DNA of 64,000 nt from Bacilli bacterium (GTDB lineage Bacteria; Bacillota_I; Bacilli_A; RF39; UBA660). Of this stretch, positions 16,660 to 20,187 are shown piece after piece (position 1 is the stretch's first letter; each line of letters begins with the position of its first letter). The notes under the pieces are model-generated. The model did not search any database. It was not told the origin of the DNA and saw only the letters and a list, made by a program, of their open reading frames with translations. Location of the stretch: the NCBI GenBank assembly GCA_016283075.1, contig JAEEMF010000026.1, positions 5,270 to 69,269 on the forward strand. The letters are read 5' to 3'. A program made the position numbers and the translations under genes.

Positions 16660-19600
16660 ATGAAAAAAATAGCAAGTTTAAAATTTTATATTGTTATTGG
16701 TTTAGCAATAGTTGCTTTTGCGCTTTCTACAATATTTCCTTCTTTAGCAAGATTCAAAAATAGAACAAGACTTGAAGATGTAGTATCTTGGGATGGAAGT
16801 GTAGCTACTAGTTTTAAAAAAGGAACAGGTACTGAAAGTGATCCATATGTAATTACAACTGGTGCGGAACTTGCATACCTTTCTGAAACACTTAATGTAA
16901 AAGATTATAATGGAGAGTACGTAGTACTTGGAGATGACATTGTTCTAAATGAAGGTGTATTTAACTACCTTGAAGATAAATTAACTTATACTATAAATGG
17001 TAATACTTACTATATTAAAGAATATACTAAAGAGTATTACTCTGATAGTGAATATAAAAACTTAGTTGGAAGAGTTAATACTTTAACTCCTTTAAATAAT
17101 TTTAAAGGTACTTTTATAGGAGACTCTAATACTATATTTGGTTTATATGTTACTTCTAATTCAAGTGATAAATTAGGTTTATTTACTAATTTATCTGGTA
17201 AGGTAGAAGATATCTATTTAGAAAACACTTTAATATATGGTGGATATATATCAGCAGCACTTGCTACTGATATAACAAATAATACAGTGGAAAACATCTT
17301 TGTAAGTGGAAATATTATTTCTAATAGTTCTAACAAAGAAGAAAGTAAAAATATATTATTTGACGATATTTTATCTGCTAGAAGTGAAGAAAAACTTAAA
17401 GTAAATGAATTAATACTTGGTAAAGTTACTTCGTCTAAATTAGAAGGAACTATATCTAGTGTAAATGGTGAAACTTTAATAAATGGTAATAGTGTTACTG
17501 AAAGTAACTTCAGTATTAATTTAGGAGCATCTAAATTAAATGAAATATCTATTACCGGAGCAGAAGGACTTACAATAACAAATCTTAAGTATACAGTTAA
17601 TTATGAATTTAACTATGCTTCTGGTATTGTAGGACTAGCTAAAAACTCTACTTTAAAAGGAACTATTAATAAAGCTACTATTCGTGGTAACTTAGATAGT
17701 GCTGGTTTAATAGCAGTTGCAACTAATACTAATGTTAATATGTCTTATAATAAAGGTAGTATTAATGGTATAAGTGCTGCTGGTTTAATTAACTATGTAT
17801 CACTTAATACTGTAAGAACTTCTATTACAAATAGTTATAATAGTGGTTCTACTAATAAAGGTAGTATTATTTCTAAAGTTAATAACAGTACTCAAATAAA
17901 TATTACTAATACATTTAGTGCAGGTAGTGATTATTTTATTGATGAAATAGTAAGTACTACAGTACTTGTTAATAATTCTTATAATACATCTGATTTAAAT
18001 GTTAGAACTGGTAGTATTAGCGGATCTATTACTAAGACTACTGAAGCTAACTTGAAAAATAAAACATTTGGTAAAGGAACACTTTCATTCTATGAATTTG
18101 TAGACTTTAATAATTTAAATAACAATAGAGATAATGTATGGGTATATGAAGAAGATGAATATCCAATACTATATATTGATGATTTAACTAATCCAGTAGC
18201 AAGTATTCATGCTGGAACTTATGCATGGGATGGTTTAGGATATAAACTAAAGAATATTAACTTTAGTTCTAATATCACTTATAGTATTACGGAAAATGAT
18301 CCTTTAAGACCTGTAAGTGAAGTATATTATTATATTCATAAATCTCCAATTCCACTTAATAAGAGTGAAATTGATTCTATTACAGAGTGGACTACTTATA
18401 AAGGAGTAAGTTCTATTAAAGAGCAAGGATACTATATAATCTATGCTAAAGTAATAGATACAAGAGGTAACACTTATTTACTTAATACTGACTTATTAAT
18501 ACTTGATTTAACAGGTGCAGATATTGAAATAAATATTAGTTCTAAATCTTATGATAGTTTTGGAACACCTAATTACTTATATATTAATGAATCTAAATCA
18601 TTAACTATTAAAACTCATGATGAATACTCAGGAGTTAAATCTACTGAATACTTAGTATCAAATACGGTACTTACAAGTGAAGAACTTGAAACTAGTGTAT
18701 GGACTAAGTATACTGGTCCAATAAAAGTAAGTTCTACTTCACCAGTTATATACTATGTTAAGGCAGTAGATAACTGCGGATTTGTTACATACGCAAATAC
18801 TGATTTTATTTCACTAAATGGATTTAGTGAAGGTAATATTACTCTTGGTAATAATACATCTAATGTATTAAATAATATTAATATTACAGATAAATCAAGT
18901 ATAAGTTTAGAACTAGCTTATAACGATACTAATTACTATACTTCTAGTGAAGTACATAACTTAGTATCAAGTGTACTTCTTCCTAAAGGAACAAGTATTA
19001 CTTTATATGATTTAAAGAATAATAAAGTTTATAAATATGATATTACTTCAAGTGAAGATATTTATAACTTTAATAAAAATGGATATGCTACTTATGCACT
19101 TAGTCTATTTAAAGAAACATCTAAAGCAAGCGAAGATAACTACTTTAGCGATACTATCTTTAGAAATAAAGTAATTGAAGATAGATTTAAAGTAACAGTA
19201 GACTTTAGAAATTCAAATATCTCTGATGATATAAAGAATATTAAAATATATATGAATATTACTGATAATAATAAAATTACTAGAAGTACACTTACTTCTT
19301 CAGTAAAAACATTTAATGTTATTAATGATTCAGATAGTAGTTTATTTATTGAAAGTAGTTTTAATGGAGGAATACTACTAAATAGTAATTCTTCTATATC
19401 AGTTAAATTTAAAGCTGGTATTAACTACCAAACTAAAAATGATAAAACTATATATGATACTTTAGGAGAAAATAAATCTATAGGTATAATGATTAAAGCT
19501 TATGATAGTAGTAATAATCTTATTACTAAGAGAAATATTCGTAACTTAGTTATTACACTTGATGGAGAAGAATATGCTCCTGATATAAATGGTATCTTTA

Positions 19601-20187
19601 GAATTAATCTTAATAATGGATTAAATGTTTCAAATAAAACTCTTGTTATTAAGACTACTGAAGATAATATGAAATTACTTAATGGAACATATACTTTAAA
19701 TATTAGTAGTTTTATAGCATATGATGGTGTATATTCAAATGAATTATCTAGTGATGCTATAAGTATTCCTATTACAGTATCTAGTAGTAATACTTCTAGA
19801 AACTATAGTTTTAATGTTTCATATGATGATAGTAATCGTATTATATCTAAAGAAGATGTAAGAAAATTATTAACATTTAAATTATATGAAGATGGAGACT
19901 TTGCAAGTCCTAATATTAGAGTTTCTTTATATAAGAAAGATAAATTAACAGCATATGAACAAGATTATACTTTAGTTGATTTAAAAGATTATGTTAATGA
20001 TAATTTAACTAAGTATAGTAATAAAATATACTATGCTAGTAGTAACTCTATAAACGGAGTATCAAGTACATTTAATTTAACATTACTTCCAGGTAACTTT
20101 GAAAATACTGGATATAAATTAGTATTTGATTTATATGATGGTAATACTAAAGTAGGAAGTATTGAAAAGAAATTTATTGTTAGATAG
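16660..20187 (+). CDS. Giant (1175 aa) secreted beta-helix / adhesin-like surface protein with TasA-class-like N-terminal signal ('FPSLARFKNRT')
   Basis: Signal/TM at the N-terminus. 'GTGTESDPYVITTGAELAYLSE', typical of the N-cap of right-handed parallel beta-helix domains. Many NxGxI-type repeats (e.g. 'SYNKGSINGISAAGLINY') consistent with beta-helix rungs. Ser/Thr/Asn-rich C-terminal region. Confidence 0.6.
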   Translation: MKKIASLKFYIVIGLAIVAFALSTIFPSLARFKNRTRLEDVVSWDGSVATSFKKGTGTESDPYVITTGAELAYLSETLNVKDYNGEYVVLGDDIVLNEGVFNYLEDKLTYTINGNTYYIKEYTKEYYSDSEYKNLVGRVNTLTPLNNFKGTFIGDSNTIFGLYVTSNSSDKLGLFTNLSGKVEDIYLENTLIYGGYISAALATDITNNTVENIFVSGNIISNSSNKEESKNILFDDILSARSEEKLKVNELILGKVTSSKLEGTISSVNGETLINGNSVTESNFSINLGASKLNEISITGAEGLTITNLKYTVNYEFNYASGIVGLAKNSTLKGTINKATIRGNLDSAGLIAVATNTNVNMSYNKGSINGISAAGLINYVSLNTVRTSITNSYNSGSTNKGSIISKVNNSTQINITNTFSAGSDYFIDEIVSTTVLVNNSYNTSDLNVRTGSISGSITKTTEANLKNKTFGKGTLSFYEFVDFNNLNNNRDNVWVYEEDEYPILYIDDLTNPVASIHAGTYAWDGLGYKLKNINFSSNITYSITENDPLRPVSEVYYYIHKSPIPLNKSEIDSITEWTTYKGVSSIKEQGYYIIYAKVIDTRGNTYLLNTDLLILDLTGADIEINISSKSYDSFGTPNYLYINESKSLTIKTHDEYSGVKSTEYLVSNTVLTSEELETSVWTKYTGPIKVSSTSPVIYYVKAVDNCGFVTYANTDFISLNGFSEGNITLGNNTSNVLNNINITDKSSISLELAYNDTNYYTSSEVHNLVSSVLLPKGTSITLYDLKNNKVYKYDITSSEDIYNFNKNGYATYALSLFKETSKASEDNYFSDTIFRNKVIEDRFKVTVDFRNSNISDDIKNIKIYMNITDNNKITRSTLTSSVKTFNVINDSDSSLFIESSFNGGILLNSNSSISVKFKAGINYQTKNDKTIYDTLGENKSIGIMIKAYDSSNNLITKRNIRNLVITLDGEEYAPDINGIFRINLNNGLNVSNKTLVIKTTEDNMKLLNGTYTLNISSFIAYDGVYSNELSSDAISIPITVSSSNTSRNYSFNVSYDDSNRIISKEDVRKLLTFKLYEDGDFASPNIRVSLYKKDKLTAYEQDYTLVDLKDYVNDNLTKYSNKIYYASSNSINGVSSTFNLTLLPGNFENTGYKLVFDLYDGNTKVGSIEKKFIVR

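Follow-up and report, generated by a model that had tools for sequence, protein, structure and literature searches.

A large beta-helix surface protein encoded with TasA-like and SipW-like genes in uncultured small-genome Bacilli

TasA-type fibers, which are built from small subunits and served by a single SipW, are known from work on Bacillus, Clostridium perfringens and archaea, and we know of no other fibers of Gram-positive bacteria that form by donor-strand exchange. SipW is the type I signal peptidase that cleaves the signal peptides from both TasA and TapA (PMC9674648). TasA is cleaved at A27↓A28-F29 (the arrow marks the cleavage site here and below), F29 makes a hydrophobic contact within the donor strand (residues 28 to 38), and TapA provides a precedent for N-terminal complementation (PMC9674648). 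In Streptococcus pyogenes, SipA resembles a signal peptidase, lacks the catalytic residues, is encoded between pilus genes and is essential for pilus polymerization (PMC4049620). It has the bacterial signal peptidase fold, in which catalysis depends on a serine and a lysine (PMC4049620). Here we compare with these systems a locus found in a stretch of 64,000 nucleotides (nt) from an uncultured Bacilli bacterium (GenBank assembly GCA_016283075.1, contig JAEEMF010000026.1), which we call the window, and in particular a gene that encodes a protein of 1175 amino acids (aa).

We read the 1175-aa protein as a large subunit, probably one that binds a ligand, in an extracellular assembly of the SipW/TasA type, and we hold this reading with about even confidence. 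The gene is an open reading frame (ORF) of 3.5 kb with an ATG start (16660..20187, + strand), exactly as described in the original prediction. It is not a chance ORF, because it spans 3.5 kb at 25% GC and has about 77 full-length homologs (1040 to 1236 aa, 30 to 98% identity). None of these homologs carries a Pfam domain, and the only name given to them is "hypothetical protein"; annotation is lacking for the 1175-aa family and for most of its partners. The gene is the first of a nine-gene operon that runs through the gene for a 410-aa protein with intergenic gaps of 3 to 136 nt. A 185-aa gene starts 3 nt after it and a 294-aa gene follows 8 nt further on; beyond this trio, the operon encodes three proteins related to signal peptidases of the endoplasmic reticulum (ER)/archaeal or SipW type, in which the retention of catalytic motifs differs.

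20191..20748, + strand: 185-aa protein, signal peptide with GMTYS↓IF, flexible N-terminal extension, beta-sandwich
20757..21641, + strand: 294-aa protein with a GFSYA↓KY motif
21700..22227, + strand: 175-aa SipW-like pseudo-peptidase, topology with two transmembrane (TM) segments kept, weak match to NF046067 SipW (E=0.002)
22364..24589, + strand: 741-aa protein, ER/archaeal-type signal peptidase I at aa ~16-158
27305..27874, + strand: 189-aa second SipW-like signal peptidase, GSM serine and TH[RKE] histidine kept

We scanned one genome per species with an alignment of nine sequences and recovered 69 related loci. The trio was kept wherever the sequence extended far enough (62 to 63 loci, about 60 species), and the 175-aa gene followed it directly in 56 loci. 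The 1175-aa gene shares an operon with ER-type signal peptidase genes in about 45 to 55 related genomes, and the two active paralogs were syntenic in about 43 to 45 loci. Across the 69 loci, three modules were co-conserved, namely the genes for the 233-aa protein, the 463/445-aa paralogs (two to five copies per locus), the 383-aa and the 549-aa proteins; those for the 1175-, 185-, 294- and 175-aa proteins; and those for the 741-, 515-, 380-, 189- and 410-aa proteins. In some loci, the order of the modules is changed or a module occurs more than once (L019, L025 and L054). The presence of an ER/archaeal-type peptidase gene beside genes for exported substrates is the arrangement of tapA-sipW-tasA in Bacillus subtilis and of sipW-tasA-calY in Bacillus cereus. 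Submitters labeled the sources of the 69 loci as uncultured Bacilli, Mollicutes, Tenericutes or Bacillota, a few of these labels being evidently generic, and one genome with a 1175-aa locus is a closed chromosome of 1.49 Mb. The hosts are a widespread group of uncultured, low-GC, small-genome Bacilli of the gut and of digesters.

We then turn to the N terminus of the 1175-aa protein. An alignment of 38 orthologs revealed a K-rich n-region (MKKIASLK), an h-region of about 20 aa and a c-region P-S-L-A, with IP[ST]LARFKNR conserved after the h-region. Throughout the family, this is a textbook signal peptidase I (SPase I) site, with Pro in position -4, Ser or Thr in -3 and Ala, Gly or Ser in -1. 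Because of the P-4, S-3, A-1 pattern, and in keeping with the -3/-1 rule and with the register of TasA A27↓A28, the preprotein is predicted to be cleaved at A30↓R31. The original prediction had set a "SipW-class" N terminus against a Sec signal. This opposition is misconceived, because SipW substrates are Sec substrates, and the signal of the 1175-aa protein is an ordinary Sec/SPase I signal.

The same prediction had proposed that the K-rich/TM/SLARF motif is shared with the TasA-like subunits, and this held for the families of the locus. Indeed, a minimal pattern, [ST]-hydrophobic-A↓x-[FY], is common to the 1175-aa protein (S-L-A↓R-F) and to six other locus families, just as the substrates of tapA-sipW-tasA share the motif [ST]-x-A↓x-F. 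The 1175-aa protein thereby has an aromatic residue at +2, which is the additional mark of SipW-cognate signals and corresponds to F29 of TasA. We counted a strict version, [ST][YLFW]A.[FY] placed where the h-region ends, and found it in 42/65 orthologs of the 1175-aa protein, in 49/62 members of the 294-aa family, 29/43 of the 383-aa family and 77/78 of the 463-aa family, and in all members of the 410-aa (33/33) and 445-aa (32/32) families, compared to only 2/141 other ORFs with an N-terminal hydrophobic segment. Both of the latter are extra members of locus L017, where two additional proteins of 522 to 525 aa with GSYA↓FF are encoded between the pseudo-peptidase and the 741-aa genes (L017:10200-13359); the locus can therefore take up more motif-bearing cargo. 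The 185-aa family carries a variant, T-Y-S↓x-F. When profiles were compared with hhalign, the 1175-aa N terminus aligned in register with the 294-aa family (E=7.7e-6, Prob 84%), the 410-aa family (E=0.002) and the 463/445-aa family (E=0.006), and the control, the 175-aa family with a TM segment and no motif, gave E=0.047. Most of the alignment with the 294-aa family came from the signal peptide and from ARFKN/AKYVS. In our reading, the 1175-aa protein starts with a normal Sec signal bearing a locus-wide cleavage signature, and it is mainly genomic linkage that assigns it to a SipW-type peptidase.

The link to TasA itself comes from the 185-aa protein, which, as judged from sequence profiles, is a remote homolog of TasA over its N-terminal half (signal, post-cleavage segment and first strands). 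When the 185-aa family was compared with 35 aligned bona fide TasA proteins, the seed of which is 99% identical to B. subtilis TasA, hhalign returned Prob 94.7% and E=5.6e-8 with aa 3-88 placed on TasA 1-84. In this alignment, GITYS↓xF falls on GGTWA↓AF and L.dL.PGD..eY.FsVsN falls on LsNLKPGD...F.L.N.G. A profile search over 1.84 billion representatives yielded 961 relatives, which form a wider unannotated family of ~180-aa proteins; this wider family also matched TasA (E=7.5e-6), with most of the signal h-region outside the aligned stretch. The Pfam model Peptidase_M73 (PF12389) was matched below threshold by 24/47 members of the 185-aa family (best E=1.4e-4), the window protein reaching 13.8 bits against a gathering threshold of 22.5, and in the wider family this model was touched by 2/68 and the TapA model by 4/68 proteins, again below threshold; these weak matches are in line with a relationship to TasA. 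The AlphaFold2 (AF2) model of the 185-aa protein (pLDDT, the predicted local distance difference test, 82) consists of a signal helix, an unstructured N-terminal extension of about 15 residues and a beta-sandwich, and its best Foldseek matches are generic jellyrolls (MAM, TNF-like, CBM; E about 3e-4). A small beta-sandwich subunit is a further feature shared with tapA-sipW-tasA, and the remote homology of the 185-aa protein covers the signal, donor-strand and first-strand region of TasA. The 294-aa family resembles the 185-aa family over the N-terminal ~90 residues (hhalign Prob 95.9%, E=5.2e-9); the 294-aa protein had no PF12389 match, and its family was not significantly similar to TasA (hhalign E=0.017). 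The two small genes that had been called TasA-like do directly follow the 1175-aa gene, and both of their products start with an N terminus like that of the 1175-aa protein.

A SipW-like gene had likewise been proposed to follow these genes. The 175-aa protein has the expected topology; however, an alignment with active paralogs showed that its catalytic Ser and His are replaced in all orthologs examined, and we therefore consider it a pseudo-peptidase. The peptidases that appear catalytically intact by their motifs ("active" SipW/SEC11-type enzymes) are the 741-aa and 189-aa proteins encoded further downstream. The 741-aa protein scored 60.2 bits against TIGR02228 (cut-off, 51.85) and harbors the GSM Ser, the THR His and GDAN; its closest PDB relatives are human SEC11C and SEC11A (E=1.5e-6). 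Its C-terminal region of about 580 aa, a charged linker followed by a conserved domain at aa ~400-741, has no Pfam or PDB relatives and would, from the topology, be cytoplasmic.

The architecture of the 1175-aa protein was derived from an AF2 model built on 38 homologs (mean pLDDT 86.9). The model shows a hydrophobic helix at residues 4-35, low confidence at residues 29-39 (pLDDT <50) and almost exclusively beta structure in the remainder, which comprises a beta-helix and an array of immunoglobulin (Ig)-like domains.

16660..16749, + strand: signal peptide, aa 1-30 (alignment of 38 orthologs, hydropathy, AF2 helix 4-35)
16750..16788, + strand: predicted mature N-terminal stub, aa 31-43, conserved RFKNR and a variable linker of 7-11 residues
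16789..18174, + strand: right-handed parallel beta-helix of the GLUG/IgA1-protease-N-domain type, ~aa 44-505
18175..20187, + strand: stalk of about six Ig-like beta-sandwich domains, ~aa 506-1175 (Foldseek, NF047446)

The fold of the N-terminal part matches solved GLUG domains, which are parallel beta-helices, and BLASTP aligned the GLUG protein P0078 (Pfam GLUG, PF07581) over residues 3-525 (E=5e-20). Because of these fold and protein matches, the proposal of a beta-helix protein holds, though only for ~aa 44-505. The PF07581 model itself matched 1/38 orthologs (5.3e-5) and did not match the window protein. For the remaining 60%, Foldseek of the whole model returned tandem Ig-like arrays (PrgB, the MG domains of TEP1/alpha-2-macroglobulin, AgI/II C123 and an ice-binding adhesin), with the CfaE-CfaB fusion 3f83 also among the matches, and NCBIfam placed an OmpL47-type Ig-like domain (NF047446) at residues 641-707 (E=9.5e-7). 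Conservation peaks at residues 26-100 and in the C-terminal domain, and the least conserved part is an insert at ~aa 226-300 inside the beta-helix.

The original prediction had also noted that LPXTG and wall-binding repeats are missing, and this was confirmed. No LPXTG-like motif occurs anywhere in the window protein or in the last 60 aa of 55 orthologs, Pfam detected neither wall-binding repeats nor enzyme domains, and no hydrophobic C-terminal tail was found, the C terminus (...GSIEKKFIVR) belonging to a beta-sandwich. The 1175-aa product is a large exported surface protein with a beta-helix head followed by an Ig-like stalk and no C-terminal anchor. Known GLUG beta-helix domains are found in streptococcal and Gemella IgA1 proteases and in BACOVA_03286 (PF07581; PDB 3n6z, 7uvk and 7jgj). 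The 1175-aa protein differs from them in that it is not matched by PF07581 and combines the helix with an Ig-like stalk and a TasA-type operon. It also has neither HExxH nor an M26 domain, and we rejected an identity as IgA1 protease on this ground. A prophage tailspike was rejected as well, given the signal peptide and a housekeeping chromosomal context that is kept across species.

The conserved stretch WDG.VA..Y..G.GT..DPYIIS is the start of the beta-helix module and not a donor strand. In P0078, the WDG stretch follows a plain signal peptide (IPTFA↓KT) without a gap, and a second copy lies inside the protein at residue 447. This leaves only the 13-residue stub, RFKNR plus the variable linker, in front of the fold, and this stub is the sole candidate for an N-terminal extension or donor strand.

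The locus differs from tapA-sipW-tasA in several respects. The accessory protein has 1175 aa and comprises a beta-helix and some six Ig-like domains, compared to 253 aa for TapA; no member of the locus reaches the Peptidase_M73 threshold; there are three peptidase paralogs, one of them dead and one with an extension of about 580 aa; the locus includes a pair of McrB-like AAA+ and DUF2357 proteins as well as six or more families with the motif; and the hosts are uncultured small-genome Bacilli. Among the best-ranked literature results, we found no paper that ties SipW-type systems to Mollicutes-like lineages. As in the case of TapA, a non-polymerizing accessory protein could cap or nucleate the fiber (PMC9674648). 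The FCT pilus loci of S. pyogenes have the same gene grammar, in which a large tip adhesin is encoded together with small subunits of the shaft or base and with a catalytically dead peptidase-like protein. However, their pili are polymerized covalently by sortase through LPXTG, which is absent here, and the 175-aa protein goes back to peptidases of the ER/SipW Ser-His type; the best PDB match of SipA here is negligible (E=0.31). The chaperone-usher tip adhesins FimH and CfaE offer a working analogy, a two-part adhesin on a donor-strand-complemented fiber, but here a chaperone and an usher are lacking, the cell is of the monoderm type and the protein families are not related. The locus would work like tapA-sipW-tasA, and its gene grammar is similar to that of SipA-containing sortase pilus loci. 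It is a demonstrable member of neither group, because the Peptidase_M73 threshold is not reached, an identity with the TasA fold is not supported and LPXTG is absent.

By analogy with these systems, a tip-adhesin/donor-strand mechanism is plausible. The 1175-aa preprotein would cross the membrane through Sec, and its signal peptide would be cut at PSLA30↓R31 by an operon peptidase, either the 741-aa or the 189-aa protein. The mature protein would then be kept on the cell by joining a complex or fiber of the 185-aa and 294-aa beta-sandwich proteins through non-covalent strand complementation. Attachment could be TapA-like, via the N-terminal stub RFKNR..., or the conserved C-terminal domain could accept a strand in a FimH-like manner, with the head distal. 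The dead 175-aa peptidase may hold the signal/cleavage-site region during assembly, like S. pyogenes SipA.

Several observations weigh against assigning the 1175-aa protein to a SipW/TasA-type assembly. At the level of the signal, the 1175-aa N terminus has no profile similarity to TasA (hhalign Prob 0.2%). Eight N-terminal fragments did not match TIGR04088, the model of SipW-cognate signals, at E<=10, although the HMMER filters may drop so short a model. A hidden Markov model (HMM) built from the other six families, leaving the 1175-aa family out, gave the 1175-aa N termini a median of 3.9 bits compared to -1.4 bits for the controls; only 5% of them exceeded the 95th percentile of the controls, and the two groups were not separated. 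The signal peptide would, moreover, pass as a substrate of any SPase I. At the level of the mature proteins, only 13 residues lie between the predicted cleavage site and the beta-helix, RFKNR alone being conserved there, none of the domains of the 1175-aa protein is similar to the 185-aa protein, the C-terminal half of the 185-aa protein gave no alignment with TasA, and the top 50 Foldseek matches of the 185-aa model do not include TasA. It is solely the modeled architecture (GLUG helices, PfbA/SRRP-like folds and the Ig-like stalk) that suggests the label "adhesin." Finally, five distant lineages hold the trio alone, with no peptidase genes nearby; the pseudo-peptidase and the downstream module are absent there, and the homolog of the 294-aa protein is fused to a C-terminal extension of 300 to 570 aa.

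L041:14026-16641, L043:14011-16584, L047:13973-16549, L060:3736-5640 and L066:14224-16050: fusions of the 294-aa homolog

Other readings of the same data have to be weighed. The N-terminal motif might serve export and cleavage only, with the C-terminal beta-sandwich accepting an extension at the N terminus of either the 185-aa or the 294-aa protein and the head pointing away from the cell, as in FimH. The C-terminal domain is indeed among the best conserved parts of the 1175-aa protein, the N-terminal stub is very short, the 185-aa protein has a flexible extension of about 15 residues before its first strand, and a distal head on a proximal stalk is the usual design of adhesins. We nevertheless find this geometry rather unlikely: we found no sequence similarity between the 185-aa family and the domains of the 1175-aa protein, and this geometry would not explain why RFKNR is strictly conserved after the cleavage site. 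Another possibility is that the signal peptide stays uncleaved and anchors a type II membrane-tethered protein of a thin-walled or wall-less Bacillus, in which case the pseudo-peptidase may bind the motif without cutting it and no fiber would exist. Such an anchor would agree with the long h-region (~20 aa), the four basic residues directly after it (R31, K33, R35 and R37), the dead peptidase that accompanies the trio, the Mollicutes or Tenericutes labels given by submitters to many host genomes, and the lack of any other anchor in the protein. Yet the P-4/S-3/A-1 site is of the textbook kind throughout the family, the same operon encodes two peptidases that appear active by their motifs, and with a tether at the N terminus the beta-helix head would lie next to the membrane and the stalk would point outward; we consider this reading improbable.

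It is also conceivable that any SPase I processes the protein, that it acts as a common secreted binding protein or enzyme, such as a depolymerase of polysaccharides, and that its neighbors are co-regulated but not co-assembled with it. The signal peptide looks generic, and that of the homologous GLUG protein P0078, IPTFA↓KT, is a plain one; P0078, however, lacks the aromatic residue at +2 that is common to the neighbors of the 1175-aa protein. Neither HExxH nor a Pfam enzyme domain is present, the genes of the trio are spaced by 3 to 8 nt, and the trio is invariant across genomes in which identity is 30 to 50%. We judge this explanation improbable as well, and retain the 1175-aa protein as a candidate subunit of a SipW/TasA-type assembly.

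The remaining members of the operon and an upstream module that is conserved with it are the following.

24592..26139, + strand: 515-aa membrane-anchored McrB-type AAA+ protein with an N-terminal TM segment
26152..27294, + strand: 380-aa DUF2357 protein that resembles the N-terminal domain of McrC
27906-29138, + strand: 410-aa exported protein with a VTLA↓WF motif
9228..15759, + strand: upstream co-conserved module with a 233-aa membrane protein, three exported paralogs and a 549-aa soluble protein

The 515-aa protein matched Escherichia coli McrB (6hz4, E=2e-5) and PADLOC PDC-M26A (2e-38), and it is the most conserved protein of the locus, with 63 to 73% identity where the 1175-aa protein shows 30 to 50%. 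In its DUF2357 partner, no nuclease motif was recognized. A defense-island reading of the downstream genes was considered in view of the PADLOC match, and was not adopted because the order with the peptidase and motif genes is fixed in about 35 genomes and there was no other PADLOC match; in these genomes, the 515/380-aa pair holds a fixed position between the two signal-peptidase genes. The three upstream paralogs (9916-13949, + strand) form one family, with 463 aa and STFA↓WF, 445 aa and SSYA↓WF, and 383 aa and STYA↓WL. They carry the most TasA-like motif (STYA↓WF) and have no detectable TasA or PDB homology; by hhalign, neither the 463/445-aa nor the 410-aa family was significantly homologous to TasA. 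The N-terminal 70 aa of the 463-aa protein (9916-11307, + strand) gave a weak match to the SafA chaperone-usher pilin model (E=4.5e-4) that spans the signal peptide and the first strand and that is probably driven by the signal peptide. Profile searches against the PDB with the 185-aa, 463/445-aa, 294-aa, 380-aa and 549-aa families returned nothing or spurious matches. A divergently oriented gene for a protein of about 210 aa without a Pfam match (29216-29845, - strand) occupies the same place after the 410-aa gene in most related loci.

In its broadest form, a reading of the whole ~20-kb locus (9228-29154) would make it an undescribed surface-filament machine of uncultured small-genome Bacilli, which we regard as a speculative and unlikely proposal. 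The ER-type peptidases, one fused to a cytoplasmic domain and one dead, would form an assembly platform, and the membrane McrB-like AAA+ NTPase with its DUF2357 partner would couple nucleotide hydrolysis to assembly. Several TasA-like subunit families would be polymerized, and the 1175-aa beta-helix protein would be the terminal adhesin.

The sequence signals around the operon fit a single transcription unit at the following positions, those of the promoter and the ribosome-binding site being consensus matches only.

15728-15759, + strand: strong terminator before the operon, following the 549-aa gene
16591-16619, + strand: promoter-like site, ATGAAA-17-TATAAT with a TG extension, by consensus match
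16646-16654, + strand: canonical Shine-Dalgarno sequence AAAGGAGGA of the 1175-aa gene, 6 nt upstream, by consensus match
29137-29154, + strand: terminator-like hairpin closing the operon after the 410-aa gene

The promoter-like site includes an extended -10-like element, TGTTATAAT, about 40 nt 5' of the 1175-aa gene, likewise identified by its match to the consensus. A terminator scan found no strong + strand terminator between 16660 and 29137, but only a weak intragenic hairpin of 5 bp at 18763. A CYTH/class IV adenylate cyclase (CyaB-like) gene (15928-16494, + strand) sits between the 549-aa and 1175-aa genes; it is unique to the source genome and absent from all 69 related loci. The window as a whole, with about 25 to 26% GC and nearly all genes on the + strand, is ordinary chromosome and encodes a threonyl-tRNA synthetase (ThrRS), an RNase R-like protein, two-component systems and an arginine deiminase (47075-48343, + strand). 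Near the latter, we observed an amino-acid-kinase (carbamate-kinase-like) domain fused to a DcuC-type anaerobic carrier (49323-51701, + strand), and, in the neighboring gene, a solute-binding protein fused to an ABC permease domain (51760-53196).

Overall, the locus suggests that the export and cleavage logic of TasA-type systems has been extended to the sortase-free display of a very large adhesin-like protein. It adds a pseudo-peptidase that parallels streptococcal SipA and possibly an NTPase, and about 10 unannotated protein families gain names and testable roles. This may help to explain the attachment of small-genome commensals to hosts, particles or other cells.

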